64,000 nucleotides of DNA, taken from IMG/VR virus record IMGVR_UViG_3300032315_001694. One strand, given 5' to 3'. The stretch comes from a virus (taxonomy: Duplodnaviria > Heunggongvirae > Uroviricota > Caudoviricetes). The position numbers and the translations under genes are program-made. This document shows, in pieces, positions 1 to 60,225 of the stretch; the first letter of the stretch is position 1, and each line of letters begins with the position of its first letter. A model generated the notes under the pieces. That model was not told the origin of the DNA. It saw only the letters and a program-made list of their open reading frames with translations, and ran no database searches.

Positions 1-94
1 TAGGACTTTGTTCTCTCATTTTGTTATCTGTGGAAGAATCTATGTCTATTTCTTCGTTCACTCGGAAATTTTCGAATAATTCTAAGTATTTCAT
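1..94 (-). CDS. 5'-proximal part of an N-motif family paralog; start codon at 94, gene continues leftward past the window edge. Predicted N-terminus MKYLELFENF
   Basis: Reverse-complement translation from 94 gives MKYLELFENFRVNEEIDIDSS with no stop before the window edge; matches the family N-terminal signature. Confidence 0.4.
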   Translation of the reverse strand, partial: MKYLELFENFRVNEEIDIDSSTDNKMREQSP

Positions 95-14630: not shown

Positions 14631-14995
14631 TAGATACTATTATATTTTTTAACAATACTCTGAATATAAAGAGTTTGATAGATGTTCTGTAAAGTCGGAA
14701 CAGATGAAATATTTGGTTTATTTACCTCTAAATGATATTCAAAGTCCCAAGTGGATTTAAAAATAAAATAATCCGCAACCATATATCCATACTCATCCAA
14801 CATTGGATAAATTGAATCATATGTTGTATCATTCCTTAATTTCAGAATGTTTTCTTTTCTATTGATTTTAGATACCACTCTTTGCTTCATTACCCCAAAT
14901 AATGATAAACCATCGTCAAATGTGTAATTACCCAAACGCATTTGTAAAGATTGTATCGGAGAAGTTGTATAAACACTTTGTGAGAATATTGCCAT
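14630..14995 (-). CDS. hypothetical protein, likely virion-associated
   Basis: 121-aa ORF, start/stop overlap with neighbour. Confidence 0.35.
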   Translation of the reverse strand: MAIFSQSVYTTSPIQSLQMRLGNYTFDDGLSLFGVMKQRVVSKINRKENILKLRNDTTYDSIYPMLDEYGYMVADYFIFKSTWDFEYHLEVNKPNISSVPTLQNIYQTLYIQSIVKKYNSI

Positions 14996-31104: not shown

Positions 31105-32973
31105 TTATTTAACGAAGAATCTATCTAATTGTTCTAATCTAGACTTTAGATTATTAATTTTATCTTTTTCAGGTTTATCATACTCTTCACCAAATGAAAG
31201 ATATAATTGCTTAGAATTCATAACTTTCTCAATGGATTTTTTCAGTTTATCAATAAGATTTACATCTTTCAAATCCTCAGTGTAAGACCAAGCATCTGAA
31301 GTTTTAGTTTCATCTTCTATTTCAATACCTAATAGTTCAGCATCCATTTTATGAATCCATTCAAGTGTCATAACATCATCATCTTTCACTATATCAATTG
31401 GTGATTTCATCTTATGAAGTGTTATTTTGAACTTGGTTATAAACCAATTACCAGATTCATCTTTACTCAAAAGTTCTTTTAAAATACCACCGTGTTCTTC
31501 CCAGTATCTATTTTTCTTAACTATATTTTGATACCAAACTAAATCTTTTAATTTATAGAAATCTACATAGTCTCTATCATCTCGGTGAAAATAATCACTA
31601 CCACACTCACCGGTTTTACCATTCACGGAAATAACAATACTAATAGCATCATCATCATAAATATAATAACCATAAGCATCTGAGTAAATAGCATCTTCAA
31701 CGTGTAAAAACTCATCATTCCACTCACTAAACACAATATTCTCATAATCCTCCGGATACCAACCACGATTTCCTCTACCTCCTGTTCTTACTTCGACAGC
31801 TCTATTTCTCCATAAGTAATCACTGAGTGGATCAGACCAAACTGCTTGATCCTCTGGAATTGGCTCATCATAATATTCAGAATACATCTCCTCTTCATCA
31901 GATATCTCTTGATATCCACCACCAGTATCTTCTAAAATGTATTGACCAGAATGATCGTCTTTATCATCATCATTGTAAAGATTACCATTAAATGGATTAT
32001 ATCTTTTAAATGTATCCATATAAGGATATCTTCCATATTTTTCTTTTTTTAATTCAATTATGATTCCAAGTATGTGATTTTTACCATTAAAGGTAAATTC
32101 ACTAAGACTATAATGGTTATTATTGGCTTTAAAAGCCCAACCTTCAGAAACGGCATAATCTCTCATTTTTTGAACTATCGAATCATCAATTGCATATTGT
32201 CTGTCCATTAAATATTCAAACTTTTCCGGATTTGGCACAGAAACAGATCCTTTAATCGTGTCGATTTTCCAAACAAGAGCTCTGCCTTTTAATTTTTCTT
32301 TACCATCATTCTCATCTTCTTCTACTAAACAAAGCATTTGACATTTATCAGGATTCTTTACATAAATATCGAAATATGAACTAGGTTTTTCTTTCATACA
32401 AGAATTACCCAGTGTATAATATTGAGACCAGTAATTTTCACTTTTATACCAAAAAGCAATATCGTCACCTTTTACAAGTAATATCCTTTCACCTTTCTTT
32501 TCTAAAGCTGCTTTAAATTTATTTGTAAATTCTTCAATTTGAGTTGGTGTGAATTTTCCTGGAAATACTTTATTTAAAAATCTTCCAATTTTAAGAGGAC
32601 TTCTGGATTTAGTCCAAATTTCATTTCCTAAATCATGAAGTTGGTTAGATATACTCATTTTTGGATCATCTTCAAACATAGGATAAATATGAGAGTATTT
32701 ACTTTCAGGATATTTAATGTTTAGATTCTTTCTGGCATTTTTAGCTGTTGTGAATGATATATAACCAGGATCTTTATCGAAATCAATAAAGGTTATATCA
32801 TCTTTTAAGTTTTGAAATTCCAAATCTACTAAAGAATCAGCCACTTCACCAGTTGAACCTTCTATATTTACTAATCTTTTAAATAATTTTCTGAGTTTTG
32901 GTGAAAAATAAACAATAGATTCTGAAATAGAATCTAATTGACTTTCTAGTAAAAACTCATCATATCTAAACAT
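31105..32973 (-). CDS. N-motif family paralog, large (MFRYDEFLLES), paralog of 47472..49016
   Basis: N-terminal signature; shares IVYFSPKLRKL, GNSCM...GRALVWK and YPYMDT segments with 47472..49016. Confidence 0.55.
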   Translation of the reverse strand: MFRYDEFLLESQLDSISESIVYFSPKLRKLFKRLVNIEGSTGEVADSLVDLEFQNLKDDITFIDFDKDPGYISFTTAKNARKNLNIKYPESKYSHIYPMFEDDPKMSISNQLHDLGNEIWTKSRSPLKIGRFLNKVFPGKFTPTQIEEFTNKFKAALEKKGERILLVKGDDIAFWYKSENYWSQYYTLGNSCMKEKPSSYFDIYVKNPDKCQMLCLVEEDENDGKEKLKGRALVWKIDTIKGSVSVPNPEKFEYLMDRQYAIDDSIVQKMRDYAVSEGWAFKANNNHYSLSEFTFNGKNHILGIIIELKKEKYGRYPYMDTFKRYNPFNGNLYNDDDKDDHSGQYILEDTGGGYQEISDEEEMYSEYYDEPIPEDQAVWSDPLSDYLWRNRAVEVRTGGRGNRGWYPEDYENIVFSEWNDEFLHVEDAIYSDAYGYYIYDDDAISIVISVNGKTGECGSDYFHRDDRDYVDFYKLKDLVWYQNIVKKNRYWEEHGGILKELLSKDESGNWFITKFKITLHKMKSPIDIVKDDDVMTLEWIHKMDAELLGIEIEDETKTSDAWSYTEDLKDVNLIDKLKKSIEKVMNSKQLYLSFGEEYDKPEKDKINNLKSRLEQLDRFFVK

Positions 32974-32983: not shown

Positions 32984-33895
32984 TTATTTATTGATGATGA
33001 AATCACTAATGAAAGAATCATAAACCTCTTCAATGTCATCTTCTTTTTCAGTTTTTCCAATATAGTAAATTAAACACTCAGAATCGGTCCAAAACTCATA
33101 AGAATGCCATCTATCTAAATTAGATAGATATCTCCAATCCATTACATGAAATCCTTCTAAATCATCTAAATCAGTTCCACAAAATCTATCAGGTGTTAGA
33201 AAGTGATTAAATCCATCTTCAACTCTTTTGAACTCTCCTTCTTTAAATTTCCTGAATAATTTATTTATTTTTATCGCTCCTAATGATACACTTTTGATAG
33301 CTGAGAATGAATCTTTTAACCACTCATCATATTGTTTTTGTAAATCAGACATCATCTCTGAATAAGAATTATCTGAAATTTTATTCACAATCATTAACTC
33401 AGAAAACTTATCATTAAATGAAATCAGCACGGGCAGTTGGCCAGGTCTTCGTGAAGTATTTGGAAAGCCATCAGTTATATGAACTTGACAACTCCATAAA
33501 TCTGATGAAGGAGCTACTCCAAATTTAGCACCATCAAAAGGTATGATTAAGTAACGATGAAATCCAAATATAATTCTCCGGTCAATACTTGTTAGTCCGA
33601 TAACTGATTGACTTCTTTTCGGAAATTTTGACCAACTCGGTAGATTATCCATTAATAAAGTATGATGTCTTGATTCTACACCATCAGTAAATCTATCGGA
33701 TTTCTTTAAAGGAGATCTATCAAAAGATTTTGGATTGATATAGGAAAATATCGGACCTTCAGATGATTTACTTCTTTGAAGTAGTTTTGGTGCCTTAACA
33801 AAATCTTTACACTTTTCATGTAAGATTTTTCTAAACTCTGATTCGGTCAATTCAGAAGTCCTACTCTCAAACATTTTGAATAATTGAAATCTCAT
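32984..33895 (-). CDS. N-motif family paralog (MRFQLFKMFES)
   Basis: N-terminal signature. Confidence 0.5.
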   Translation of the reverse strand: MRFQLFKMFESRTSELTESEFRKILHEKCKDFVKAPKLLQRSKSSEGPIFSYINPKSFDRSPLKKSDRFTDGVESRHHTLLMDNLPSWSKFPKRSQSVIGLTSIDRRIIFGFHRYLIIPFDGAKFGVAPSSDLWSCQVHITDGFPNTSRRPGQLPVLISFNDKFSELMIVNKISDNSYSEMMSDLQKQYDEWLKDSFSAIKSVSLGAIKINKLFRKFKEGEFKRVEDGFNHFLTPDRFCGTDLDDLEGFHVMDWRYLSNLDRWHSYEFWTDSECLIYYIGKTEKEDDIEEVYDSFISDFIINK

Positions 33896-34536
33896 ATAAA
33901 ATGTTGAATTAATTTTTGGTTATCCGTCAAATCCCAATTATTCATAGGTCGTTCTTCGATTAATTGAGCCATTTTAATATATTCCTCGTCTGAACAATTG
34001 ACTAATAAACCTGTAAATCCAAGCTTTTCTTCTGTTGTTGAATATCCTGGTCTTATCCAATCCTCTGTCCATAAATCACCATATGGTCGAAATCCTTCAA
34101 CATGATAGAATCTTTTCAAACACTCAATTAAAAAATCTAACTTTGGTTTAGAAAATAGAGTATCGGCAAATTGAATCATTAAATGTTTATAAGCTTTGGC
34201 ACCACCTTTTATAGAATTTAAAGCAATTTCACTACCAAAATGATTTGAAAAATTGATACTCTCTATATTACAATAATTAGTACAAAATTTTAATCTTTTA
34301 TCAGGAATATCAGTATTAAGTATATCTATAAAGTTTGATTTTTTTGATACTATATTTTTAAGATTCTCACCACCTGGATGTGGTTTTAGATAAAATTTAA
34401 AACCAGATTGATAACCATATAATTTACTATCAATTTCATCAGTGAAATCATAAAAGTAATTTTCAACCTGACCAAAAGTTGGAAAATCAAAATCATTGTC
34501 AAATGACTCAAATTGTTTGAATTTTAAAATATTCAT
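33892..34536 (-). CDS. N-motif family paralog (start at internal Met: MNILKFKQFESF)
   Basis: Signature appears at internal Met; the tracked start at 34653 would run antisense through the divergent neighbour. Confidence 0.45.
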   Translation of the reverse strand: MNILKFKQFESFDNDFDFPTFGQVENYFYDFTDEIDSKLYGYQSGFKFYLKPHPGGENLKNIVSKKSNFIDILNTDIPDKRLKFCTNYCNIESINFSNHFGSEIALNSIKGGAKAYKHLMIQFADTLFSKPKLDFLIECLKRFYHVEGFRPYGDLWTEDWIRPGYSTTEEKLGFTGLLVNCSDEEYIKMAQLIEERPMNNWDLTDNQKLIQHFI

Positions 34537-34552
34537 ATTAATATATATTAAA

Positions 34553-35674
34553 ATGAGACACTTAAAACCATATAAAATATTTGAATCTTCAGAAGGATTA
34601 ACACCTGAAGAGTTTTGTGAGAAATATCTTTCAGGTAATTTTAAAATTACCAATGGTGAAATCCATGTTGAAGGTGATGTTTACCTATTTAATAAAGAAT
34701 TGTCTCAAATTCCAAAGTTTGGTTCAGTCAGTGGTCTTATAGATGTGAGAAAAAATAAACTTAAAACATTTGAATTCCTACCAGAAGAATGTGGTGGTCC
34801 TTATGTTATTCATATGAATCCATATGAAGGAGAATTAAAAAGAATTGTAGAAATCACACAAAATAGAATTAGTGATGGAACTCTCAATATCTACAAAAAT
34901 TTATTTGATAAATTCATTAAAAGATGTTTAGAAGATGGAGTTTGGTTTGAAGGACAATCTAATGAATTTGGCATCAAAGATGCTTGGCATGATATTAAAT
35001 TAGATGATTACAAACAAAATAAAGATGCCTTCTTTTTTGGTAAATCTGAACTAATTGATTTAGATGATACTGAAATTTTAAAAGAACAATTTGACCTTGA
35101 TATGGATGGTGGCTGGATAATGGATTTAGTAAATAAAACAATAGAAAAAATTAAATCGGATGATGAATCTACCAGAAGATTTTATTTTCTATTTCTTATT
35201 AGTTTGTTAAAGTCAGATGAATCTGATAGAATTCGTGAGGTGGTCGAAGGCACTTATGATTTAGGCGATGTTTATAATAGAATTGATAGTTTCAAATCGA
35301 TGCAAGAAAGAGATTTAGATAAAGCAATTCAACTACTATCTAAAAAATTAGTAAGAACTGATTCAGAAAGAAGTAGAGATGACTCTCACGACCTTTTTGT
35401 TTTTATAGGTAGAGATAAATTTGTAGAAAAAGAAGATGGTTTATATAGAAAATCATTAGAAGTTGAGAATTTCCTCAAAATTAATATTTACAACACAGAA
35501 GATTTGCAGATGATAAATATGATGAAGCTAAGAGCTAGATACCAGGGTGGATCTGAGGTCTATATGATATGGATTCCTAAAGACTTCTTCGATGAGGAAA
35601 AAGATTCCTATACTGAAGAAGAAATATCAGATTTTATTGATGTAATCAATCAAAAGAAAACTAGAATAGGTTAA
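34553..35674 (+). CDS. N-motif family paralog (start at internal Met: MRHLKPYKIFESS), plus-strand member
   Basis: Signature at internal Met; divergent from 33892..34536 with a 16-nt AT-only spacer. Confidence 0.45.
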   Translation: MRHLKPYKIFESSEGLTPEEFCEKYLSGNFKITNGEIHVEGDVYLFNKELSQIPKFGSVSGLIDVRKNKLKTFEFLPEECGGPYVIHMNPYEGELKRIVEITQNRISDGTLNIYKNLFDKFIKRCLEDGVWFEGQSNEFGIKDAWHDIKLDDYKQNKDAFFFGKSELIDLDDTEILKEQFDLDMDGGWIMDLVNKTIEKIKSDDESTRRFYFLFLISLLKSDESDRIREVVEGTYDLGDVYNRIDSFKSMQERDLDKAIQLLSKKLVRTDSERSRDDSHDLFVFIGRDKFVEKEDGLYRKSLEVENFLKINIYNTEDLQMINMMKLRARYQGGSEVYMIWIPKDFFDEEKDSYTEEEISDFIDVINQKKTRIG

Positions 35675-40188: not shown

Positions 40189-40917
40189 ATGAATTACGGA
40201 AAAGACTTTAAAAAATTCGCACTTAGTCAAGGCATCTCTTCTACATCACTTGATGCTTTTGAAAACTCAATGACACCGCAAATCATCGAGGAAAGAAAGC
40301 TAAATGCTATATCTATGTCAGTTTTTGACAGATTGATGATGGAAAGAACAATATGGATTTGTTCACCAATCAATAGTCAAATGGCATCAATTATTCAAGC
40401 TCAACTAATTTATCTAGATTCTTTAGAAAAAAAAGATATTACAATACATTGTGATAGTCCGGGTGGTTCGGTAATGGCGGGATTGGGAATAATAGATGTG
40501 ATGAATTATATTAAATCCGATGTTGCTACAATAAATACAGGGTTATGTGCTTCGATGGGAGCAATGATACTTTCAGCCGGACAAAAGGGTAAAAGGAGTT
40601 CGTTATTATTTTCAAGAACAATGATACACCATGTTTCTTCATCTACATCCGGAACAGTAGATGATCAGAGAATTTCTTTAATGGAATCTGAAAAATACAA
40701 TTTTCTTTTAATGAAAATGTTAGCTCGAAACTGTGGTAAAACTTTTGATGAAATACACGACTCTTCAAGAAGGGATAAGTGGTTGAATTCTGATGAATCT
40801 TTAGAATTTGGCATAATTGATGAAATAATCGGACTTGATAAAAATGAAAGTATCACTAAGACGATGGAAGGGTTTGATGAATATTATCAAAAGGAAGTAA
40901 TGATGAGAAATAACTAA
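40189..40917 (+). CDS. clpP: ClpP-family (S14) serine protease
   Basis: ICSPINSQMASIIQAQLIYL...HCDSPGGSVMAGLGIIDVM...INTGLCASMGAMILSAGQKGKRSSLLFSRTMIHH aligns with the ClpP Ser-His-Asp core. Confidence 0.7.
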   Translation: MNYGKDFKKFALSQGISSTSLDAFENSMTPQIIEERKLNAISMSVFDRLMMERTIWICSPINSQMASIIQAQLIYLDSLEKKDITIHCDSPGGSVMAGLGIIDVMNYIKSDVATINTGLCASMGAMILSAGQKGKRSSLLFSRTMIHHVSSSTSGTVDDQRISLMESEKYNFLLMKMLARNCGKTFDEIHDSSRRDKWLNSDESLEFGIIDEIIGLDKNESITKTMEGFDEYYQKEVMMRNN

Positions 40918-41660: not shown

Positions 41661-41846
41661 ATGGAACTACAAGAAAAACTCGAACTAAATAAAAAAGTCA
41701 GAAAATACGAAGGAGAAAACTATTTTCTTATTTCACTTAAAAAGAACTTAGCTTCTAAATGGTGTCAAAAAATCGAAGTCGATGGAAAAACACATAAAGT
41801 TCTTTCTGATAAACAATATGAAGTTGCTAAAGGATTGTTAGGTTAA
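41661..41846 (+). CDS. hypothetical small protein
   Basis: 61 aa following the promoter motif. Confidence 0.3.
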   Translation: MELQEKLELNKKVRKYEGENYFLISLKKNLASKWCQKIEVDGKTHKVLSDKQYEVAKGLLG

Positions 41847-42235
41847 TTCCAAACAATATAAATCCTGGTAACATCTTCATGAGGAAATTCTAATTTTCTT
41901 CCAGATTTAGAAGGTTTATTCGGTGTATCTGAAATAAGATGATAAATTGACAAACCATTCATTTCCATAAATTCATTTAGATTTTTAAGTAAAGGAAGAA
42001 TATCATTCACTTTAAAGGTTTCTAGATGTCCATTTGAACCCATCTTTACACTCTTAATCCAAAGAGAAATCATATAATTAGTACCTACAACTCCGAATTG
42101 AGAAATCTCAGTCTCGAATTCAATATCGTCAAATTCATCTTGTAAATATTGCACTTTATCTTCTAAATCAAGATAAATATCTTGTATCATTTCTTCTGTT
42201 GCTTCAAATAGTTTAAACTTTTTTAACCTTTTCAT
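41843..42235 (-). CDS. N-motif family paralog (MKRLKKFKLFEATEE)
   Basis: N-terminal signature. Confidence 0.5.
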   Translation of the reverse strand: MKRLKKFKLFEATEEMIQDIYLDLEDKVQYLQDEFDDIEFETEISQFGVVGTNYMISLWIKSVKMGSNGHLETFKVNDILPLLKNLNEFMEMNGLSIYHLISDTPNKPSKSGRKLEFPHEDVTRIYIVWN

Positions 42236-43560
42236 TACTTCAAATAATTTTTCAAGATAGCTCCAATCTCTTTATTTAGAGCTTCATCATCACAATCACC
42301 GTAATCGGAAAAGTAAGGATTTAATTGATTATCAAAATAACAATCTGAAGCCCATTCACCAAATACATTACCTAAACTATAACCATAAAGTGCTTTACCA
42401 TAATCTTCAATCCACCTATCTTCGAATTTCAATTTATAGAACCAAACAATTTCATCGTAATAAACCTTTTCTTTTCTATCAGTTCCCGGAATTTTACGAT
42501 AGTAAAATCTTTTTCCTTCTTTTCTTTCTTTAGTATATTTGATACCTTCTCTTTCAATTATTTTATCAAATGCTTCTTCTAATTCTTCTTGATTTCTTTC
42601 AACATGAGCTCCAACTTCCCAATCGGCAATTGTTTGTCTGATATCACCAATTATCTCAGAATCTTTACAAAGAGGTTCTAATGTGCTGTGAGAATTTTCT
42701 TTAAGTAAGAAATTAATCACTTCTTCCTCTGATTTATCTTCTAAATTTTCATTATCACATTCTTTGATAAATTCTTCCAAACCACCCAATTCTTTGATTA
42801 GAGCTTTAACAGCTAGAATCTCATTTTCTTTTTTCAAAGAATATCTAAATAAACTATCTATTTCTGGTTGGTAATAATGTCTATCATAATTACTCTCATC
42901 AATTCCATTAACTAATGTATCTTTCCAACTTGATTTACTTGATAACATCATATCAGCCATATCCTCAATATCAAACTCACAATAAATATTTCCAACACTA
43001 TCTGTTGTATAATCAGACCAGTTATAAATCTCCGCTAAATCTTTAGCCACTATATCAACTTTTTCTGGTTGATGACAATAAACAACCAATCCAGCTGATG
43101 ATATGTATAAATCACCATCTACCATGTCTTCTTGTTTAGTGGTAAATGGTTTTCCAGGAGTCTCAGGAATCCAAGTTATGATAGAACCTTTATAAAGATG
43201 AATATTATACGGAGAAGTATTACCATCTTCATCCCAAACATCTTGAATAATATATCCCTCACTCTCTAAGTATTTTAAGGAAGATTGAAAATCAAGTGTC
43301 AAATCTCCGGTTTTTTCATTTGATTTATAGATAACAATACGATATCCAAAGTAATATTCGTTTTTCAAACTGATAATATCATCTTTTGGATTTAACCATT
43401 CGAACCTTTTTGAATTATCTTTCATTTCTAAAAAAACGGCCTTCTCGACTCCTATTTCATAACCTTCATCTTTAAGAGAAATAAAAGCATAGTCAATGTC
43501 TGTTGGATCTAACCAATATTCAACAGATTCTTTAATAAATTGAAGCCAGGTTTTAATCAT
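42235..43560 (-). CDS. N-motif family paralog (MIKTWLQFIKES)
   Basis: Signature variant with W. Confidence 0.5.
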   Translation of the reverse strand: MIKTWLQFIKESVEYWLDPTDIDYAFISLKDEGYEIGVEKAVFLEMKDNSKRFEWLNPKDDIISLKNEYYFGYRIVIYKSNEKTGDLTLDFQSSLKYLESEGYIIQDVWDEDGNTSPYNIHLYKGSIITWIPETPGKPFTTKQEDMVDGDLYISSAGLVVYCHQPEKVDIVAKDLAEIYNWSDYTTDSVGNIYCEFDIEDMADMMLSSKSSWKDTLVNGIDESNYDRHYYQPEIDSLFRYSLKKENEILAVKALIKELGGLEEFIKECDNENLEDKSEEEVINFLLKENSHSTLEPLCKDSEIIGDIRQTIADWEVGAHVERNQEELEEAFDKIIEREGIKYTKERKEGKRFYYRKIPGTDRKEKVYYDEIVWFYKLKFEDRWIEDYGKALYGYSLGNVFGEWASDCYFDNQLNPYFSDYGDCDDEALNKEIGAILKNYLK

Positions 43561-44128
43561 TGCTATTTTTTGATTTTAATTCTATCTCAAATTGAACAAT
43601 TGTTTTATGATAATTTGTGAATTCACATCTCACCAATTTTGTTTCATAATCTGGACTTTTCAATCTATATAAGTACTTATTAACATCTTCGGAATATTTT
43701 ATAAACTGAGGTAAATCCACTTGTGACCACTTGTTCAACTTTATTGTATATTCACTTTCTGTTGAATAAATCATAAAAGTGAAATCTTCCAAATCTATAA
43801 AATCTGAAAATATCTCCTCTATTTCAAATGCTTCTGGGAATATCTCTCTTTCTTCCCTAATTCTATGATAAATTTGGATCATTTTATCAGTCAATTCAGG
43901 ATTATTCTGACACATATTGAGCAACTTTTTAATCATCTCTTTCATATCATCATATCCAGTTTCATACATCATAAAAGTATCATCATGTCCGATATAAGAG
44001 TAAAAGTCATCAGCTATTTCTTTGGTTGGATTTGAATCCTCTGAGACATAATACACTAATTCCTGAGCCATTTCTTTGGTTAGTTTGTTAGATTGTGATT
44101 CGTTAAATTTATGCCAAGATTTAATCAT
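43553..44128 (-). CDS. N-motif family paralog (MIKSWHKFNESQ)
   Basis: Signature variant. Confidence 0.5.
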   Translation of the reverse strand: MIKSWHKFNESQSNKLTKEMAQELVYYVSEDSNPTKEIADDFYSYIGHDDTFMMYETGYDDMKEMIKKLLNMCQNNPELTDKMIQIYHRIREEREIFPEAFEIEEIFSDFIDLEDFTFMIYSTESEYTIKLNKWSQVDLPQFIKYSEDVNKYLYRLKSPDYETKLVRCEFTNYHKTIVQFEIELKSKNSND

Positions 44129-44196
44129 ACATCTATATATAAAAAAAGAGGAACCAATTATGATTCCTCTTTTGTAGCTGTCCTTAAAGTTTTCTA

Positions 44197-45138
44197 TTAG
44201 ATTCGAGCTAATAACTCTTTTTTCTTTTCTTGAAATTCTTCTTCTGTAATGATTTCAGCGTCCTTTAAGTCCTTTAACTTAATTAATAAGTTAGTGGCAT
44301 CATGACTTACTTTTAAATCCTTTTTAGTTTCAACTTCCACCGGTTTTCTACTCTCTGGAAGTAATTGATAAACAATCGAATGAATATAGTTTTTTTCAAA
44401 ATCCATATCAACTTCACTAAATTGTTGATTAGATTTTTCACCCTTTTCAATTCTACCAGTTTCTAGTGAATTAGAAATTGGAATTGAATTACTTGAAAAA
44501 CAATTAGTTAAATTCATCTCACTATTTGTTGTGGAGTTATAAACAGAATTAACCGTTGTTCCACCAAATGAACCACCACAAAAAGTTGAACCGATGTTAG
44601 TTGTACCATAATTACCGTACCAAACTGGATAAGGCCTATAATAAGGATATCTATCAACATAGATAGGATAATACTCTCTTATTACTACTTCTCTTAATTT
44701 GTCAGACCAATTTTTTAAACTTTGAGCTTCTTCTTTGTAGAAAAATACCTCCATTAAACCATTGTTTTGGATAGCTTCTTCTACCTCACCTGTCATCTCG
44801 ACTTCATAAGTTTGGAAAATGAATTTCTTTTTATCATCTACAAAGCAGTCGAGGTAAACTCTTTGGCCGGGTTTAATAACAAGACCGGTTTTAGAAATTG
44901 ATTGGTTGTTTAAACGAATGTCAGCCAATACACATTCTTTGAGTGGATTCCAAATTTCAATTTGAAATTCTTCATCATTTTCTAAGTAGATATTACCACT
45001 TTTAATTGACTTTCTACCTTTATCTTTAGGGTTAATAACCCATGCACCAGGCAGATTGGCGCCTTTTACTTCTTTAGTTTTCATACTATTCTTTTTTGTT
45101 TTTGTCCTATATCTTTGAATTCCTTTAGAAACTCTCAA
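44197..45138 (-). CDS. hypothetical protein
   Basis: 313 aa; Tyr/Gly-rich central region. Confidence 0.4.
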   Translation of the reverse strand: MRVSKGIQRYRTKTKKNSMKTKEVKGANLPGAWVINPKDKGRKSIKSGNIYLENDEEFQIEIWNPLKECVLADIRLNNQSISKTGLVIKPGQRVYLDCFVDDKKKFIFQTYEVEMTGEVEEAIQNNGLMEVFFYKEEAQSLKNWSDKLREVVIREYYPIYVDRYPYYRPYPVWYGNYGTTNIGSTFCGGSFGGTTVNSVYNSTTNSEMNLTNCFSSNSIPISNSLETGRIEKGEKSNQQFSEVDMDFEKNYIHSIVYQLLPESRKPVEVETKKDLKVSHDATNLLIKLKDLKDAEIITEEEFQEKKKELLARI

Positions 45139-45212
45139 AGTGTCACCTGAACACTCGACATAAGATGGTGTAGAACAGCTACATATTATGTATTAAATTA
45201 TAATCTCTTTGT

Positions 45213-46139
45213 TTAATTATCAATTATAAAGATATCCTTCCAAGTCATATCTACTAATCCTAACTCTTTCAACTTCTCATCTGTTTCTTGAGCAATTGAA
45301 TGACCTCTTAATCTATCTGACCTAGTTACACTTCTCTCATCATATATTGAAATTTTTAATCTAAAAATCAAACCTGAAGCTTTAAATACTTTATCTAAAA
45401 AGATAGGAGTTATATCAGTAATAAACTGATCACTTAAATTATAAGGTAGATTTATATCTCTTTTTTTAACAGGTGTTATTAATTTATCCACCTTATCAGA
45501 AAAAACTGATAGTATATTAAAATCTATATCGTGAGACCTTTTACAATAATATTGAAATAGATTCTTAATTGTAGTATCAGGACTCAATCCTTTTAATAAG
45601 TCCTTATCTTGTGGATTTTTAATAATCCAATCGAATACCGGAAAAACATTTGCCTTGAAATTGATATGATATTCATAAATGGGTCGAGATAGCGGTGTCC
45701 AACTCTCTCTAGGGTCAGGTAAAGTTTGTGGATATTTCTTATAGACAATAATATCAGTTAATTCTGGAAATTCTATTTTGACAAACTTTTGTGAATAATA
45801 ATCAGCACCAACTCTAAAATCTTTTCTCAACTTAACCAACTCAACCAATTGATTGTGAGTATGAACAAACTGACCAATATCTACTATTTGTTGAATAAAC
45901 CATTTGTAAATATCTTCATCTTTCTTATATAAAGCGCCTATCCACTCTCTACCAGTAAAAATAAAAGATATTATTTTATCACCACCCATACTGGAATCAT
46001 CTTTAACTTTTAGTTCCTTGAACTCAAAATTGAATTCATCTTCAACCACATTGATTAAATCTTTGATATCCAACCATTCTGTGATTTCCGAACTTTCAAA
46101 TAATTGATATGACTTTAAATGTTTAAACATAAAGATCAT
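45213..46139 (-). CDS. N-motif family paralog (MIFMFKHLKSYQLFESSE)
   Basis: Signature after the 3-residue extension. Confidence 0.45.
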   Translation of the reverse strand: MIFMFKHLKSYQLFESSEITEWLDIKDLINVVEDEFNFEFKELKVKDDSSMGGDKIISFIFTGREWIGALYKKDEDIYKWFIQQIVDIGQFVHTHNQLVELVKLRKDFRVGADYYSQKFVKIEFPELTDIIVYKKYPQTLPDPRESWTPLSRPIYEYHINFKANVFPVFDWIIKNPQDKDLLKGLSPDTTIKNLFQYYCKRSHDIDFNILSVFSDKVDKLITPVKKRDINLPYNLSDQFITDITPIFLDKVFKASGLIFRLKISIYDERSVTRSDRLRGHSIAQETDEKLKELGLVDMTWKDIFIIDN

Positions 46140-46698
46140 TAACCTTTAACTTTGAAATTAACTTTTTGTAATCAGATTGATACCTTTCAAATTCTTCCTC
46201 TGAATATTCCCAAGTGAATTCAGACCTTAAATCTAAATTCTTTAATACAGAAATAATTTTCATTACATCTTTCCTGTTCTTAAATTTAAGTAGTTTCAAA
46301 TCATAAAGTTCTTCCATAGCCTCTTCACTGTAACCATATAATTCTACTTTATCTTTATTTGTATCATATTCAAAAGATATTGGACAGAAAATAGTATCAC
46401 CATCCCATTCTTCAGGAAATTGAAAGAATAAAGGCACAGTAAGATTTTCATAATCATTATCTAAGTAAGTGTCCCAACTCATTCCAAAATCAAATCCAGC
46501 AAACTTAGCTTTAACTTCATTCTGAAATTCAACTTCACCAATTCCATATTTTTCCGACTCACGAACTATCATATCTTCAGAATGTGAAAATAGTTTCTTT
46601 GCTCTTTCACCGTGACCCATTTTTTTTAGTTTATAACTAGCACTTCTATAAGTATTAGGTTTTAACTCTTCATTAAATTGTTGCCATCTTTTAATCAT
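46123..46698 (-). CDS. N-motif family paralog (MIKRWQQFNEEL)
   Basis: Signature variant. Confidence 0.5.
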   Translation of the reverse strand: MIKRWQQFNEELKPNTYRSASYKLKKMGHGERAKKLFSHSEDMIVRESEKYGIGEVEFQNEVKAKFAGFDFGMSWDTYLDNDYENLTVPLFFQFPEEWDGDTIFCPISFEYDTNKDKVELYGYSEEAMEELYDLKLLKFKNRKDVMKIISVLKNLDLRSEFTWEYSEEEFERYQSDYKKLISKLKVNDLYV

Positions 46699-46772: not shown

Positions 46773-47189
46773 ATGATTAAACAAGGAAATACCGTAAAGG
46801 TACATTACACAGGTAGATTAGAAGATAATTCAGTATTCGATTCTTCTAACGGCAGAGAGCCAATTGAGTTTGAAGTTGGTACTCAACAAGTAATCGAAGG
46901 ATTTGAAACAGCAGTTATCGGCCTTAACAAAGGCGAAAAAACTACTGTGACTATTCCTTCTGATAAAGCTTATGGAGAGTCAAGAAATGAACTTATCCAA
47001 CAAATACCAAGAAGCCAAGTTCCACAAGATGTAACAGTTGGTTCACAATTACAAGGCGTAGATCCTCAAGGACAACCATTCACGGTAACCGTAACTGATG
47101 TTAATGAGAGTTTTGTAACTATTGATGCTAATCATCCACTAGCTGGAAAAACTCTTATATTCGATCTAGAGGTAGTTGATTTCGTGTAA
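46773..47189 (+). CDS. FKBP-type peptidyl-prolyl cis-trans isomerase (SlyD/FkpB-like)
   Basis: GNTVKVHYTGRLEDNSVFDSS...EFEVGTQQVIEGFETAVIGLNKGEKTTVTIPSDKAYGE plus IF-domain insert. Confidence 0.7.
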   Translation: MIKQGNTVKVHYTGRLEDNSVFDSSNGREPIEFEVGTQQVIEGFETAVIGLNKGEKTTVTIPSDKAYGESRNELIQQIPRSQVPQDVTVGSQLQGVDPQGQPFTVTVTDVNESFVTIDANHPLAGKTLIFDLEVVDFV

Positions 47190-47471: not shown

Positions 47472-49016
47472 TTAGTTACAATCGTAACAACTAATATTAC
47501 CTCGACCGTCACAATTTCCACATTCAAAATTACCTCGACCACGACAGTCAGAGCATTCTATTTCTCCATTTCCATTACAGTCTTCACAATTGTTATTTCC
47601 GTTTCCTGAGCAATCTGGACATTCTATTTCATTTCCTTCTTCATCTTCAATGTTTCCTGATCCATCACAGTTGCTACATTCAATATCACCTGATCCTGAA
47701 CAATCATTACAACTAATTTCACCTGATCCTGAACACTCATCACAATCAACTTCACCATTTCCATAACAATCGCTACATTCAATCTCACCATTACCACCAC
47801 AAGTTTCACAAGATGATGAGTGACCACCACCAGTATCTTCTAATGTTACATAGTCTCCTCTTTGTTGTTCACTACTTAATATTCCTCTACCTTCTTGAAA
47901 ATATTTCAAAGTATCTAAGTAAGGATAGTTTGAGTAATCTTTTTTATCTAAATTTACAGTTAAATCTAAATTAACATTTGATCCATCTGGAGCATAAGCT
48001 TTATTATTACCACCACTATTGTTATAGTATTTAGAATACCAACCATTTTCTTTTGCATAATCTCTAAATAATTGAACATCTGAATCATTTATTACATAGA
48101 TTCTATCCATGAATTTTTTACCATCAGTTAGAGTCCAAAGTAAAGCTCTTCCTGTTATTTTATCTGGATCATCTTGTGATTTGAATATAACTAAACTAAC
48201 TTGTTCTGGATTAGCAGTATAAATTTCTAACCAACTCTTTGAGGCAACTGCCATACAAGATGAACCTAAAGTACCAGATCTTTGGTAATATCTATCATAA
48301 TGATACCAATAAGCTATATCAGATCCTTTTACTTCTTCAAAGAAAGAAAACTTATCATTTAATTTATCAATAGTTGCTTTGTAAAGATTTACAAATAATT
48401 CAAGATCTTTATCCGTAAACGCGCCAATTAGAGAAGGTGTAGTAACAGCAGCAGCTTTTAAAAGAGCTCTTACACCTCTACCTACTCCAATTTCTTGTCT
48501 GTTTTTAGACCATACTTGTTTTAACTTCTCATCAACACTTCTTAATTTTTCTACATTATAAACACCTTGTCCATCTGTAAATTTAATCCAAGCATAAGTT
48601 TTACCTGATGTTTCAGAAGTTATTTTTTTAATAACCTCACCTATTTCAGTTGAGTTTGGTGTATAAACATCACCTTCAGGTACATATCCTAGTTTATCAA
48701 ATAATTCTTGATTAGACTCAGAGTGTTTTAACCAACCACCACCAGATCCTACGAATCTAACAGTTTCTTTAGTATCACCAAGTATTTCTTGTGCCTTTCT
48801 ATCTGGTGTGAATGATATTTTATCATTCTTACTTAAATCTATATCAAAATAGTTTGATTGTGTAGTAATGTCTTTATTTTCAGTATCTAATAAAGCTTTA
48901 GAAATTGGATGGTCTATTTTAGTAAGTGCTTTTCTAAATTTATCAGAGAAAATCACATCAGATTCTAGTACTAATTCCAATGATTCATTAATGAAGTCTG
49001 AATATCTTTTTAACAT
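47472..49016 (-). CDS. N-motif family paralog (MLKRYSDFINES) with C-terminal array of about 12 CxxCxGxG zinc-finger-like repeats
   Basis: N-terminal signature; body homologous to 31105..32973; C-terminus CETCGGNGEIECSDCYGNGEVDCDECSGSGEISCNDCSGSGDIECSNCDGSG... is DnaJ-type CxxCxGxG periodicity. Confidence 0.55.
   Translation of the reverse strand: MLKRYSDFINESLELVLESDVIFSDKFRKALTKIDHPISKALLDTENKDITTQSNYFDIDLSKNDKISFTPDRKAQEILGDTKETVRFVGSGGGWLKHSESNQELFDKLGYVPEGDVYTPNSTEIGEVIKKITSETSGKTYAWIKFTDGQGVYNVEKLRSVDEKLKQVWSKNRQEIGVGRGVRALLKAAAVTTPSLIGAFTDKDLELFVNLYKATIDKLNDKFSFFEEVKGSDIAYWYHYDRYYQRSGTLGSSCMAVASKSWLEIYTANPEQVSLVIFKSQDDPDKITGRALLWTLTDGKKFMDRIYVINDSDVQLFRDYAKENGWYSKYYNNSGGNNKAYAPDGSNVNLDLTVNLDKKDYSNYPYLDTLKYFQEGRGILSSEQQRGDYVTLEDTGGGHSSSCETCGGNGEIECSDCYGNGEVDCDECSGSGEISCNDCSGSGDIECSNCDGSGNIEDEEGNEIECPDCSGNGNNNCEDCNGNGEIECSDCRGRGNFECGNCDGRGNISCYDCN
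47480..47830. repeat. about 24-nt periodic repeats encoding CxxCxGxG modules
   Basis: Reiterated tg(t/c)...gg(a/t)aatgg / gattgtga motifs visible at DNA level. Confidence 0.6.
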
Positions 49017-49765: not shown

Positions 49766-49855
49766 GGTCCTGTGGCGAAAATGGCAGAAACGCATCAGAC
49801 TTAAAATCTGATACCCAAGAGGTAAACGTTGTGGGTTCGACTCCCACCAGGATCA
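49766..49855 (+). tRNA. tRNA-Leu (anticodon TAA), type II
   Basis: Acceptor ggtcctg/caggatc; Leu-type D-arm gtggcgaaaatggcagaaacgc; anticodon stem tcaga/tctga with loop cttaaaa; 19-nt variable arm; T-arm gtggg-ttcgact-cccac. Confidence 0.65.
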
Positions 49856-56384: not shown

Positions 56385-58264
56385 ATAATGAAATTACTTT
56401 TTAATATCTCAATTTCTGGTACCGGTATATCATAACCCGGAGTCCAAATATAATTTACAGATCCTTCCATCTCACCAAATCTACTTTCAGCTGAAAGAGG
56501 ATTATTAGGATTATGATTAAAAGCCCAATCTTCGATTCCTAATTCTTCAAATCTATCTTTTATTTGTTTATTATAGAAATTTGATATAGTTCTTACTCTT
56601 CTTTGAATATCAGCTCTTGTTGAATTTTGAGTATTGTTTAAGGTATCAGAATTATGGAAAAATTGTAAGTAACATAATTGTCTTACTCCAACAAATCTAG
56701 TTTTTAAGAAACTACGAATAATCAATTCATAATCATCAGCAATCGTCAATCTACGATTATGACCACCAATAGAATGATAGAATTCTCTATCCCAAGCTCT
56801 AAAGTGATTCGGAACTCCTACAATGTGTCTTATAGTTTTTGGATTAATATTTTGACAAATAGCCACTTGATATTCACGACCTCGATAAGTTTCTTTTCGA
56901 TACTTTCCATATCCAAAAGCAAATCCATCTCCATAAGTCAGAGAATTCCAATTCTCATCAATTTCAGCACAATCCGAAAAAGCAAATTTACAATCTGGAT
57001 AAAGTTTAAAAGCCTTAACCATTAACTCACCAGCTTTGTCAGTCAAAACATCATCATGGTCTAATTCCATAATCCACTTTCCACTACAAAGTGATGCCGC
57101 TCGATACTTTGATTCACCAATTATACCTCCTGATTTTTGTCTAAAATCATATAATTTAATTCTTGAGTCATTTTTAGCTAGACTCTCAGCTATCTTTAGA
57201 GTTTTACCTTCATCACTTGAATCATTAACAATTACCCATTCCCAATTAGAATAAGTTTGTTCTTTCAATGATTGATAAGTTCTCAATAGTTTATTACCAG
57301 TATTATAGATTGGTGTGAAAAAACTAATCAAAGGATTCTCTGAATCATTGGGACTTAGAATATAATTCATAGAAGCTAAGTAAGCAGATTCACCTAAATT
57401 TGGGTGATTTGAATCAACATGGATCCATCTTCTACGAACATCTAAACTTTGAATTGATAGATTTGGGAAATTATAAAAGCTTTCACCAATAGAGACAATA
57501 CTATCCGGATTAAAACTTGATAAGTATTTATTAATGTCAGTATCATCTACAAATTTTACATTTAGTCTATCATCTTCATAATCAACTAACTTTTTAGATT
57601 TTAGTTCATGATTTTCACCAAGTAGTAAAACTTTAGGAAGTGATGGCGGCATTTTTGAACCAGTTAGATAATTATAATAACAGAGTACTTGATTGATAAA
57701 GAAGAAATCTTCTGGGTTAGATTTATAAACATCTTCAATAAAATAACCATCTGCTTTATAATCTCCCGATTTTAATCTCATTTCTCCAATCAAATCTCGT
57801 CTAAGTAAAAACTGAGCCATATCAATATGTCCAACTCTCATATTTTCAGGATTAGCCACTCTTATATCAACTCCACTAAAATCCTTACCACCTACTTTTT
57901 GGTCAAAAATAAAAGCTCTTTTATCAGGACTTTCTATGATCTTAGAAGTTAGAGTTTGAATGAAATCTTCGTGTAGAATATTATCATCATCTAAAACATA
58001 AATCCAACCATCTTGAATTAAATCAATAGCATCATTTATAAATTGATGACCATAATCACCAGGAATTGATTTCTTAAAAGTGATTTTGATATTTGGATCT
58101 TGTAATTCGGTTAATAGGTCAGCATCAATATCTTTTAAATGTAGAGTGTCGAAATAGACATACCACATCACATTAAGAGATTGATTAAAGATAGAATCTT
58201 TAACACTTAGTAGATTTTTAGTTCTACTACAACGAGTAATAATATTAAATAGAGGCTGTTCCAT
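56381..58264 (-). CDS. two-domain glycosyltransferase (C-terminal GT2 family domain)
   Basis: ISFFTPIYNTGNKLLRTYQSLKEQTYSNWEWVIVNDSSDEG is a GT2 N-terminal signature; the N-terminal half has a second nucleotide-sugar-transferase-like region. Confidence 0.6.
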   Translation of the reverse strand: MEQPLFNIITRCSRTKNLLSVKDSIFNQSLNVMWYVYFDTLHLKDIDADLLTELQDPNIKITFKKSIPGDYGHQFINDAIDLIQDGWIYVLDDDNILHEDFIQTLTSKIIESPDKRAFIFDQKVGGKDFSGVDIRVANPENMRVGHIDMAQFLLRRDLIGEMRLKSGDYKADGYFIEDVYKSNPEDFFFINQVLCYYNYLTGSKMPPSLPKVLLLGENHELKSKKLVDYEDDRLNVKFVDDTDINKYLSSFNPDSIVSIGESFYNFPNLSIQSLDVRRRWIHVDSNHPNLGESAYLASMNYILSPNDSENPLISFFTPIYNTGNKLLRTYQSLKEQTYSNWEWVIVNDSSDEGKTLKIAESLAKNDSRIKLYDFRQKSGGIIGESKYRAASLCSGKWIMELDHDDVLTDKAGELMVKAFKLYPDCKFAFSDCAEIDENWNSLTYGDGFAFGYGKYRKETYRGREYQVAICQNINPKTIRHIVGVPNHFRAWDREFYHSIGGHNRRLTIADDYELIIRSFLKTRFVGVRQLCYLQFFHNSDTLNNTQNSTRADIQRRVRTISNFYNKQIKDRFEELGIEDWAFNHNPNNPLSAESRFGEMEGSVNYIWTPGYDIPVPEIEILKSNFII

Positions 58265-58688
58265 ATTGAAAATCTAAGTAAAATAATTTACCACTTGGAC
58301 CTGACATAGGAGTAACACCCCTTTTCATCAAATCTTTATATTCTTGGTCTTCTTCTAATTTTTTTTCTGTAAAAGGTTTATCATCGATAATAGATTCGAT
58401 TTTACCATCACGGTTTTCTTGAGTAATTCTATTTTTAACAGAATCAATTTCTTCTTTTGATGCAAATCCACCTATATCTTGAGATATTGTTTTAGCGGCA
58501 ACTCTCATTACAATTGGTAAAAGTGAAGGAAAATCAGAAGAAGTATCTTCTGATGCTAAAGTATTTTCTACTAAGGTTTCAGTTTGTTTATTGGCGTATT
58601 CTGCCACCCAATCGGCTTTTGAGCCTGTGAGTCCCATAGAATCTAAAATAGGAGCCCACTTTTTCAGTGTTTTTTCTTCATTATCCAT
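58245..58688 (-). CDS. hypothetical protein
   Basis: 147 aa. Confidence 0.4.
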   Translation of the reverse strand: MDNEEKTLKKWAPILDSMGLTGSKADWVAEYANKQTETLVENTLASEDTSSDFPSLLPIVMRVAAKTISQDIGGFASKEEIDSVKNRITQENRDGKIESIIDDKPFTEKKLEEDQEYKDLMKRGVTPMSGPSGKLFYLDFQYGTASI

Positions 58689-58710: not shown

Positions 58711-59292
58711 CTAATAGTTTAAACAATCATATTCAGATTTGATAGCATCAAATAATTCTGAATGGTCATCTATATTTAATCTTTTATCAAATTCTTTTTT
58801 ATACCAATTAATAATTTGATTAATAACTGAATCTTGAGCTTCTCCATTATTGTGATCTATATACCAATCATATTCTGATTCATAATCATCTTGCCAATCT
58901 GAATCTACCCATTCTAAAACTTCTTCATCAAACATTCCGATGACTTTATCTTCATCAAACTCTTCTTTGATTTTAGCCATAGCAAATTGAAGGTCAAAAC
59001 TTTCAAGGTTTTCTTTTAACATACTATTTTTATCAATCCAATTCTTAATAGCCTTTCTCAAAGATGGTTCGTGTAAATCCATAACTTCTGAAGTTACGTC
59101 ATAGTAAATCTTATCTGTTAATCTACCTTTATTAAATTGGAATCCAGTTAAGTAATAAGGCTTATCATCAATTAAAATAAGTTTATCACCTCTAAAATCT
59201 TTTATTTCATATCTAACATTTAGATACTTCTCTAAATCTGTAACTGAGGATTCATCCGGTTGATATTCATTAAACTCTTTGATATATTTCAT
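58711..59292 (-). CDS. N-motif family paralog (MKYIKEFNEYQ)
   Basis: N-terminal signature. Confidence 0.5.
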   Translation of the reverse strand: MKYIKEFNEYQPDESSVTDLEKYLNVRYEIKDFRGDKLILIDDKPYYLTGFQFNKGRLTDKIYYDVTSEVMDLHEPSLRKAIKNWIDKNSMLKENLESFDLQFAMAKIKEEFDEDKVIGMFDEEVLEWVDSDWQDDYESEYDWYIDHNNGEAQDSVINQIINWYKKEFDKRLNIDDHSELFDAIKSEYDCLNY

Positions 59293-59305
59293 AAGTTATA
59301 TATTA

Positions 59306-59860
59306 TTAATTTGATTTCAAAATCACATTGATTTTTTTTGATACCGTCCAGTTTACCTTGCAATCCAAGTTTAATGTTTTTAATCTTTTTGTCACCATTG
59401 ATATCTTTGTCCAAATATTTTCAATAGCAAATTGAGTGTAGTGTGGTAAAAGTCCAATGTAAGTCAAATCATCCACGTCTTCATTTAAGAATATTTCAAC
59501 AGATAATTTAAAAGCACTTGATGGTGCATTAGAATCATACAATTTATATTTAATTTCTTTTATGAAATCTACATCATCTTCAATATCTTGAAATATGTCT
59601 TTTACATCTTCTAATAAATCTTCCTTTTCTTTCTTTATTTCTTCGATTCTCTTTTTACCAAACTCGATGATACTTTCTAAAAAATCAGAATCTAATTGTT
59701 TCTTATAATAGTCATCAATACGGTGATAAAAGTTTTTCCAAACTTCATCATTTAAAAGTATATCATTATACTTATTGATTTCTTTCTGAAGTTTTACACA
59801 CTCAGGATCCCACTCATAATCAAACTTTAATTCTTCATTAAAACTTTTTAAATGTTTCAT
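59306..59860 (-). CDS. N-motif family paralog (MKHLKSFNEEL)
   Basis: N-terminal signature. Confidence 0.5.
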   Translation of the reverse strand: MKHLKSFNEELKFDYEWDPECVKLQKEINKYNDILLNDEVWKNFYHRIDDYYKKQLDSDFLESIIEFGKKRIEEIKKEKEDLLEDVKDIFQDIEDDVDFIKEIKYKLYDSNAPSSAFKLSVEIFLNEDVDDLTYIGLLPHYTQFAIENIWTKISMVTKRLKTLNLDCKVNWTVSKKINVILKSN

Positions 59861-60225
59861 TAGTGATATATAATTTTAATTAAATTGCCATTATAATTTT
59901 TACTAATATAATCCTCAAGTAGATTTTTCATAATTGACTTGTTAAGATTTTCACAATATTTGAAATCTAATTCCTCTATATCATCTTCTTCATCAAAATC
60001 TTTTGGAATAACTTGCCCCTTATGAAAAGGTGATGAGTAATCTTCCTGGCTATACTTATCACCACTACCAATATAGGCAGTCGCGCTAAAATACCCATCA
60101 AGTAATCCAGTTTTTTTAGAGACTATATCATTTCTATATCCTATAATAGGACTATAATTCACCTCTGATAAGATAACATCAAATGGTGATTCTTCACTCT
60201 CATTAAATTTCTTTAAATATTTCAT
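59860..60225 (-). CDS. N-motif family paralog (start at internal Met: MKYLKKFNESEE)
   Basis: Signature begins at Met 11 of the tracked ORF. Confidence 0.45.
   Translation of the reverse strand: MKYLKKFNESEESPFDVILSEVNYSPIIGYRNDIVSKKTGLLDGYFSATAYIGSGDKYSQEDYSSPFHKGQVIPKDFDEEDDIEELDFKYCENLNKSIMKNLLEDYISKNYNGNLIKIIYH

Follow-up and report, generated by a model that had tools for sequence, protein, structure and literature searches.

The 64,000-nt viral sequence analysed here (the window; IMG/VR record IMGVR_UViG_3300032315_001694, Caudoviricetes) raises the question of why about one in five of its genes (18-19 of ~95) encodes a protein starting with the same short N-terminal leader. This leader, M-(I)-K-x-[LYW]-x-x-[FY]-(0-3 x)-E-[S/N/E/A], was displayed by 18 complete open reading frames (ORFs) and one partial ORF (Table 1), whereas less than one leader gene was expected by chance. 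We propose, with a probability of about 0.6 and on the basis of sequence comparisons, that it is a portable prohead-targeting propeptide of the same type as the capsid-targeting sequence (CTS) of phage T4, and that huge T4-related phages of Bacteroidota have placed it on ~100 unrelated proteins in each genome.

The window is AT-rich (~30 % GC) and appears to belong to a very large phage genome; the metagenomic scaffold from which it derives measures 73,942 bp. LR745206 was the only deposited phage to match it at the DNA level, and only weakly (megablast); protein-level searches also matched genomes LR756501-4, which measure 636-735 kb. We take the clade of LR745206 and LR756501-4 to be of the Mahaphage type.

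A short leader on unrelated proteins

A first-pass annotation made from the window alone had listed the ORFs bearing the N-terminal signature. All were found at their coordinates, and corrections to starts and fragments were minor. A relaxed scan of every window ORF, alternative starts included, yielded no further convincing members. With a strict regular expression (^M.{0,3}[KR].{0,1}[LIYWFM].{2}[FY].{0,3}E[SEANKQTDGY]), 16 of the 81 called window genes matched. When the window was pooled with 59 related loci from IMG/VR, 179 out of 1497 genes did so, compared with 15 out of 1497 shuffled N-termini and 22 out of 4990 internal Met positions.

The element common to the window ORFs was a portable leader of ~8-14 residues. 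Its first ten residues had been described as near-invariant, which was overstated: the motif is degenerate and occurs in three or four subtypes (MIKKYxDFIxES, MKYLKxFNES, MKYLKxYKIFES and MKYLKLFENF). Leader codons in the window also varied (TCT, TCA, TCG and AGT for Ser; TTA, CTT and CTA for Leu; AAA and AAG for Lys), and this mixture of synonymous codons, including both TCN and AGY serine codons, indicates that selection acted on the peptide and not on the DNA.

Nor do the genes form a paralogous family, as had been assumed. After removal of the first 16-20 residues, all-versus-all comparisons with BLASTP and phmmer retrieved a single pair of homologous bodies, those of 31105..32973 and 47472..49016 (33 % identity, E 9e-36). 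Since the bodies are otherwise unrelated, the shared element is a leader on unrelated bodies. Searches of the window leader bodies against Pfam and PHROGs returned nothing of note.

A Sec, Tat or lipoprotein signal peptide was rejected on direct reading of the leaders, which displayed a charged or polar residue every two to three positions and no uninterrupted hydrophobic core of the ~7-15 residues that follow a basic N-terminus in such peptides. The stretch following the leader was acidic (D+E 21 % against a background of 15 %). The secretion leader that had been kept as an alternative was abandoned on both grounds.

Distribution and conservation of the leader in related phages

A search of related phage genomes for the same leader, as recommended in the first-pass annotation, showed it to be present clade-wide, in the IMG/VR loci as well as in LR745206. 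It preceded at least 72 body clusters at the 59 related IMG/VR loci. LR745206 is a complete genome of an uncultured phage (634,780 bp, assembled from 13 fetched pieces, with 916 called genes); 110 of these genes matched the regular expression, against 8 with shuffled N-termini and 14 out of 2960 internal Met positions. The count of 110 is too low, as obvious variants such as MKYVELFENF, MEHIKKFETF and MLKKYSEFIKYK escaped the regular expression. Leader genes of LR745206 fell into 95 body families, 86 of them singletons. Bodies attached to the leader measured from 60 to more than 1200 amino acids (aa). No description of this leader in huge phages was found in the searchable literature.

Some 90 % of leader proteins had no domain match in Pfam or PHROGs. 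The pooled Pfam list for the LR745206 leader set comprised RnlA-like RNA ligase, PolyA_pol, RNase_T, 2'-5' RNA ligase/Acb1-like, NFACT-R, M15 peptidase and DHH domains; a pooled scan does not tell which member matched, and at least its DNA_topoisoIV and CLP_protease entries came from false positives of the regular expression. The RnlA-like RNA ligase was the sole enzyme individually confirmed to carry a clear leader.

Conservation of leaders relative to bodies is a biased measure across clusters whose members were chosen by their leader, and two families collected with whole-protein queries were relied on instead. Homologues of 47472..49016 numbered more than 573 and displayed 55-90 % identity on contigs as long as 630 kb. 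Of the 120 homologues listed, nearly all kept a MIK[KR]Y.[DE]F[ILV]NES start, and Y5, F8 and E11 were invariant in an alignment of 46 sequences of this family. The 42235..43560 query retrieved 115 homologues, down to 30 % identity; all but a few kept ...[YW].QFIKES, the exceptions being mostly truncated at the N-terminus. Survival of the leader down to 30 % identity in two families gathered in this manner argues that it is under purifying selection.

These data also bear on the view that the leader is a functionless relic of one much-duplicated ancestor, of which the bodies diverged while the 5' end was homogenised by recombination. Tandem true paralogues do occur in some relatives (for example eight copies with a common MKYLKLFENFNQSEID at locus L052), and the internal-protein loci of T-even phages are recombination hot spots. 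The view is nevertheless highly improbable: the range of body lengths just given includes unrelated known folds such as the RnlA-like ligase, leader DNA was not homogenised, and purifying selection on the leader was apparent in orthologues at 30-60 % identity.

The central domain common to 47472-49016 and 31105-32973 was multicopy, occurring in 7-15 places per Mahaphage genome. Cellulophaga phages phi38:1, phi40:1 and Calle also encode this domain, there lacking the leader; a check of all genes of phi38:1 revealed none with the leader.

Structure prediction on the variable bodies, which had been suggested earlier, was carried out for two proteins; the folds were largely confident, but neither body had a meaningful structural neighbour. 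In the AlphaFold2 model of the 514-aa protein (47472..49016; mean predicted local distance difference test score, pLDDT, 78), the leader formed a helix over residues 2-12 with a pLDDT of ~45. The model of the 441-aa protein (42235..43560) reached a pLDDT of 89.4 and a predicted template modelling score of 0.78, with residues 1-14 below a pLDDT of 50. Both models thus place the leader outside the fold, as a detached helix predicted with low confidence.

Resemblance to the T4 capsid-targeting sequence

The T4 CTS, given as MKTYQEFIAE in the literature, guides Alt and the internal proteins to the scaffolding core and is cleaved off by gp21 (PMC5694885; PMC3012670); all gp21-family proteases studied cut after Glu (PMC5694885). 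When the regular expression of the clade was applied to the complete T4 genome, 4 out of 253 called genes matched, namely those of IPII and IPIII (MKTYQEFIAEA), gene 61.1 (MKTFKEFIKED) and the likely false positive DsbA. The start of IPI (MKTFKEF) resembles the MKYLKKF subtype of the clade. Because the regular expression picked known CTS proteins in T4, the resemblance is specific and goes beyond a general 'MK...' bias. Leaders had a mean helical hydrophobic moment of 0.44, higher than that of other N-termini (0.31; p 4e-14); the value for the T4 CTS was 0.46. Gene 61.1 (NC_000866, 18966-19130) encodes a 54-aa hypothetical protein with a very CTS-like start.

Like the CTS of IPI, IPII, IPIII and Alt and the 10-residue propeptide of gp24, the leader is an N-terminal tag of ~10 residues on unrelated, fast-evolving proteins. 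MKTYQEFIAE↓A compares with MIKKYNDFIQE↓S (the arrow marks the actual or predicted cut), both ending in hydrophobic-x-Glu, a site of the gp21-family type; the T4 protease prefers L/I-x-E. Homologues of the T4 portal, major capsid protein (MCP) and protease are also encoded by the clade. The two systems differ in scale (~4/253 genes in T4 against 110/916 in LR745206), and the clade is further distinguished by several leader subtypes of unequal length, by the fusion of its protease to a highly repetitive scaffold, the repeat of which is similar to the leader, by its Bacteroidota host and by promoter motifs that abut the start codon.

Likeness extends to the Dar anti-restriction proteins of phage P1, which counter host defence, travel in the capsid and reach the host along with the DNA; these, however, are few, are loaded in an ordered and partner-dependent manner and lack a common short leader. 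The cargo peptides of encapsulins (whose shell has the HK97 fold) and of bacterial microcompartments likewise load unrelated cargo by means of a short terminal amphipathic helix and a flexible linker, but they are not cleaved, bind the shell and not a scaffold, are of other sequence and serve few cargo types. Giant phages phiKZ, 201phi2-1 and SPN3US possess many head-internal (inner-body or ejection) proteins which are cut after Glu by a gp21-family protease and whose propeptides are thought to target the prohead (PMC5694885). In contrast to the leader, these propeptides are mostly 80-160 residues long, share no short consensus and display an A/S/G-x-E motif, and ~8-20 proteins are processed per phage, compared with ~100 leader proteins here.

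Head module, prohead protease and scaffold

Searches of LR745206 with T4 proteins (phmmer) retrieved TerL (E 4e-50), sheath, tube, portal (E 5e-23), a gp23-like MCP and gp25, together with the replication genes gp41, gp43, gp44, gp46 and UvsX. The MCP matched Pfam Gp23 with an E value of 1.8e-26. The 707-aa product of the adjacent gene (Table 1) aligned with T4 gp21 at 28 % identity over 107 aa (BLASTP, E 3e-4), GELNHP being paired with GEFDHP and VSSRGLG with VSSRAAG, segments which presumably hold the catalytic His and Ser. Its homologues were pre-annotated as PF03420 Peptidase_S77 in a large protein database. T4 gp21 was not among the PDB entries retrieved with the sequence of the protease domain, and the link to gp21 therefore rests on BLASTP, Pfam and gene order. 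The remainder of the protein consisted of ~11 tandem 14-aa units NLDKNIAYSEYIAE followed by an acidic (poly-acidic) tail. We read this gene as a putative prohead protease of the gp21 family (S77) fused to a scaffold. Orthologues in which the repeat was kept were found on 79 IMG/VR contigs, and four IMG/VR contigs held both the protease-scaffold gene and orthologues of window leader genes.

A search of the LR745206 proteome for the leader core ([YWF]..[FY][ILVM].E[SNEAKQDT]) gave 56 matches, 20 of them N-terminal and 36 internal. Of the internal matches, the scaffold repeats (YSEYIAEN, YSEYLAEN) accounted for nine and an 83-aa protein for three. At the background rate, the chance of one 14-residue unit matching the core is ~0.002, the nine matches counting as one amplified event. 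The 83-aa protein is encoded by a separate ORF (LR745206, 460435-460686), contains three copies of the scaffold repeat and may be a small core protein like T4 gp67/gp68.

The first ~55 residues of the MCP were invariant in 74 orthologues and included VLE↓N and SINE↓N. The predicted cleavage motif of the leader, [ILVF]-x-E↓[S/N], recurs both in the scaffold and in the putative MCP propeptide. In one leader family (LR745206 93266..93520; L009:8702-8956), ~40 residues following the leader were homologous to MCP residues 44-85 (E 1e-9 to 9e-13), with MRYLRTYKKFTE↓NAYVAAS... (KKFTE↓NAY) aligned on ...AEFHSINE↓NAYANAS... of the MCP. The leader here replaces the propeptide exactly at the predicted maturation site, which is the strongest single pointer to the probable cut position and enzyme. 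Among 255 distinct leaders, in which the presence of Glu was set by the definition of the regular expression, the final Glu was located at residue 8-14, mostly 11; P3 was I, L, V or M in 51 % and P1' was S, N or A in 65 %.

The window also contains a homologue of the MCP N-terminus, detected by eye and devoid of a leader (58245..58688, Table 1). It matched the N-terminal ~125 residues of the MCP (KKWAPILDSMG, TLVE↓N, LLPIVMRVAAKT and PMSGPSGKLFYLDFQY), ended before most of the capsid fold and could represent either a decoy or a shortened paralogue of the capsid protein. Its gene also adjoins a glycosyltransferase gene.

Candidate processing enzyme and ClpP

The ClpP of the window had been put forward as the enzyme processing the leaders. 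Its NCBIfam scores were 202 bits with the ClpP model and 65 bits with the 'head maturation protease, ClpP-related' model (Clp_rel_HeadMat), for which the cut-off is 120. Its gene is surrounded by a NUDIX gene, a small ATP-dependent ligase-like gene (RNA or DNA ligase-like) and a phosphatase-like gene, with no head genes near, and neither a ClpX nor a ClpA partner was seen in the window. Being of the cellular type and lying outside the head module, ClpP is unlikely to be the processing enzyme. The likely candidate is the gp21-like protease encoded elsewhere in these genomes. A homologue of M16 (insulinase/pitrilysin-type) peptidases is encoded at 1097-2215 (minus strand), immediately downstream of leader genes 2261-4536; as this family includes presequence-processing peptidases, it could be an alternative leader-processing enzyme.

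A genuine cellular-type ClpP with an orthologue in LR745206 might instead belong to an AAA+ protease system, of phage or host, that reads the leader as a degradation or regulatory tag and thereby ensures timed removal or control of a class of proteins. The exposure of the leader, detached from the fold in the models, would suit such a tag, as would the many bearers that are small, fast-evolving orphans typical of host-takeover genes. However, no ClpX, ClpA or adaptor was identified, the ClpP gene lacked consistent linkage to leader genes and the motif is unlike known N-terminal ClpX/ClpS signals. A tag of this kind, which would also leave the likeness to the T4 CTS, to the scaffold repeat and to the MCP cleavage site unexplained, is considered quite unlikely.

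Expression signals

A promoter-like motif, (T)TAATATATA, preceded 11 window leader genes by 4-5 nt and three others by 20-28 nt. Window starts with the motif 4-5 nt upstream, not all of them of leader genes, included those at 3181, 3755, 4536, 32973, 44128, 59292, 61166, 14995, 41072 and 54986, and motif-bearing starts displayed no Shine-Dalgarno sequence. The spacer shared by two divergent leader genes (Table 1) contains TTAATATATATTAA, a perfect palindrome of 14 bp in which both strands read as the promoter-like motif; with only 16 nt in common, the mRNAs of both genes would be nearly devoid of a 5' leader. This suggests a phage-specific promoter and nearly leaderless mRNAs.

In LR745206, leader and motif were associated with an odds ratio of 5.1 (p 5.6e-11). 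Such an association, the divergent genes 16 nt apart over a palindromic motif, and the IF3 and S1-domain protein encoded by the phage could all be accommodated if the leader were a by-product of initiation on leaderless, Shine-Dalgarno-free mRNAs in a Bacteroidota host, the first codons being constrained. This is very unlikely, given that conservation was at the amino-acid level with synonymous change free, and that the invariant Y, F and E are spaced as in a helix. Moreover, 72 of the 110 LR745206 leader genes had no motif nearby, many of them lying inside operons, and motif-bearing genes without leader exist (a gp25-like gene, the NUDIX gene and 14630..14995).

All seven T4-like virion genes checked in LR745206 had the motif ahead of them, at a distance of 6-75 nt; it was absent at gp41, gp43 and gp44. 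Co-expression of leader genes with head genes fits this pattern. No homologues of the T4 late-transcription proteins gp55, gp45 and gp33 were found in LR745206 by phmmer, and the motif can therefore not be assigned to a T4-type late system.

Proposed capsid targeting and its alternatives

If the leader is a prohead-targeting propeptide, its amphipathic helix of 8-14 residues (M-K-x-[LYW]-x-x-[FY]...E) would mimic one scaffold unit (Y-S-E-Y-[ILV]-A-E-N) and, through this mimicry, is proposed to co-assemble with the scaffolding core during prohead formation. The scaffold-fused serine protease of the S77 gp21 family would then cut after the final Glu of the leader ([ILVF]-x-E↓[S/N]), and cuts at the same motif would chop the scaffold into 14-mers and remove the MCP propeptide. 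Mature cargo would remain in the head with the DNA and presumably enter the host at infection.

The first-pass annotation had already proposed a T4-type CTS on many cargo proteins. That proposal is supported in part, through the likeness to the CTS, the T4-like head module with its S77 protease, the motif common to scaffold and MCP, the exchange of the MCP propeptide and the detached, conserved leader; paralogy of the bearers and processing by ClpP were the parts that had to be given up.

Several observations weigh against capsid targeting. Head module, protease and scaffold were not found in the 64-kb window or in the 74-kb source scaffold, but in relatives. Likeness between scaffold and leader was confined to an 8-residue core and was noticed before testing, and the scaffold repeats were not among the high-ranking matches of a 10-residue position-specific scoring matrix built from MIKKY-type leaders. 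P3 was aromatic (F, Y or W), not Ile or Leu, in 25 % of the 255 leaders. The promoter-like motif also preceded UvsX and gp46 and is thus not clearly late-specific. As to the cargo, some leader proteins are enzymes of kinds not known to be packaged in any phage (the RnlA-like ligase being the confirmed case), the leaderless counterpart of the body domain of the 514-aa protein sits in the non-structural arm of phi38:1, and a packaged repertoire amounting to 12-20 % of all genes would be very large.

The leader might instead address its bearers to some other destination made by the phage, for example a patch of membrane, a compartment for replication or assembly, or a common chaperone or docking protein. 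In favour of this, the helix is amphipathic, some bearers are RNA-repair enzymes of cytoplasmic type (at least the RnlA-like ligase), and a gene for an FKBP-type isomerase (46773..47189) lies among the leader genes. Such a destination is nevertheless unlikely: no structure or partner of this sort is known for T4-related phages, and it is the prohead core that is indicated by the specific matches to scaffold repeat, protease motif and MCP maturation site. The rival explanations considered in this and the preceding sections could each be true, but account for less of the evidence than capsid targeting does.

A wider proposal, to which we give somewhat less than an even chance, is that phages of the Mahaphage type (0.5-0.7 Mb), the largest known, devote 12-20 % of their genes to at least ~100 prohead-addressed cargo proteins, which would be trimmed by the protease-scaffold fusion and injected along with the DNA as a ready-made toolkit for host takeover and anti-defence, giant capsids serving in part for protein delivery. 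If capsid targeting is true, the packaged proteome of an uncultured clade would be readable from sequence, with ~100 candidate injected effectors per genome, most of them without known fold. This would be by far the largest capsid-delivered protein set known in any phage, and would suggest a simple rule for CTS action in T4, namely imitation of a scaffold repeat combined with a common protease site. Another possible use of the leader is as a short tag by which foreign proteins are brought into large capsids. Even were the capsid model to fail, a conserved 10-residue address on 12 % of the proteome of a 635-kb phage has no other explanation at present.

Features of the window

Leader genes and the other features referred to above are compiled in Table 1. 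Within the cluster of leader genes, 44197-45084 (minus strand) encodes a 295-aa protein without leader, which displayed a C-terminal SHOCT domain and matched several PHROGs of unknown function.

Table 1. Leader genes of the window and associated features. Coordinates refer to the window unless an accession is given; arrows mark the predicted cut after Glu.
Coordinates	Strand	Length	N-terminus or sequence	Remarks
1..94	-	first 31 codons	MKYLELFENF	Gene start, cut by window edge; ATATATA motif upstream
2261..3181	-	306 aa	MIKKYEQFILE↓K	T4-IPII/III-like subtype; TTAATATATA 4 nt before ATG; no Pfam domain in pooled scan of leader proteins
3192..3755	-	187 aa	(M)KYLKRFNE↓R	GTG start; promoter-like motif 4 nt before start
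3766..4536	-	256 aa	MKYLDSFKIFE↓S	Promoter-like motif 5 nt before ATG
11021..11470	+	149 aa	MMKKILTYSLFEK / MMKKILTYSLFE↓K	Weaker match, probable member; TATATATATA stretch ending 2-4 nt before ATG
31105..32973	-	622 aa	MFRYDEFLLE↓S	Promoter-like motif 4 nt before ATG
32984..33895	-	303 aa	MRFQLFKMFE↓S	Within operon, without own promoter motif
33892..34536	-	214 aa	MNILKFKQFE↓S	
34537..34552		16 nt	ATTAATATATATTAAA	Spacer between divergent leader genes 33892..34536 and 34553..35674
34553..35674	+	373 aa	MRHLKPYKIFE↓S	
40189..40917	+			ClpP, cellular-type (NCBIfam)
41843..42235	-	130 aa	MKRLKKFKLFE↓A	No Pfam or PHROG match
42235..43560	-	441 aa	MIKTWLQFIKE↓S	Conserved cargo family, predicted fold unmatched
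43553..44128	-	191 aa	MIKSWHKFNE↓S	Promoter-like motif 5 nt before ATG
45213..46130	-	~305 aa	MFKHLKSYQLFE↓S	Start moved from 46139 to 46130 (MFKHLKSYQLFES), more likely
46123..46698	-	191 aa	MIKRWQQFNE↓E	Promoter-like motif 20 nt upstream
47472..49016	-	514 aa	MLKRYSDFINE↓S	Core gene of clade; ~10 CxxCxGxG zinc-ribbon repeats at C-terminus
58245..58688	-	147 aa		MCP N-terminal homologue without leader, directly downstream of array 58711..61166; by-eye comparison with LR745206 MCP
58711..59292	-	193 aa	MKYIKEFNE↓Y	
59306..59860	-	184 aa	MKHLKSFNE↓E	
59860..60225	-	121 aa	MKYLKKFNE↓S	
60225..61166	-	313 aa	MIKKYNDFIQE↓S	Orthologues in four related contigs
LR745206 198546..200669		707 aa		Putative protease-scaffold gene, directly upstream of MCP gene; weak Peptidase_S77 match

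Translation genes were well represented in the window. A full-length IF3, an S1-domain protein, a class II aminoacyl-tRNA synthetase (Asp/Asn/Lys-type) and a weak class I synthetase-like ORF were found in the intervals 37081-37608, 12340-13449 and 52259-54621, which fits huge phages redirecting host translation. Positions 49766-51844 carry 12 tRNA genes in a locally GC-richer region; several were called with an unusual length of 82-91 nt, and the small ORFs called on both strands of this array are probably artefacts. An NAD-dependent ligase is also encoded in the window. Finally, 61178-63916 (minus strand) encodes a 912-aa tail-fibre-like protein with collagen repeats, the local GC content of which (34-40 %) was above that of the rest of the window.

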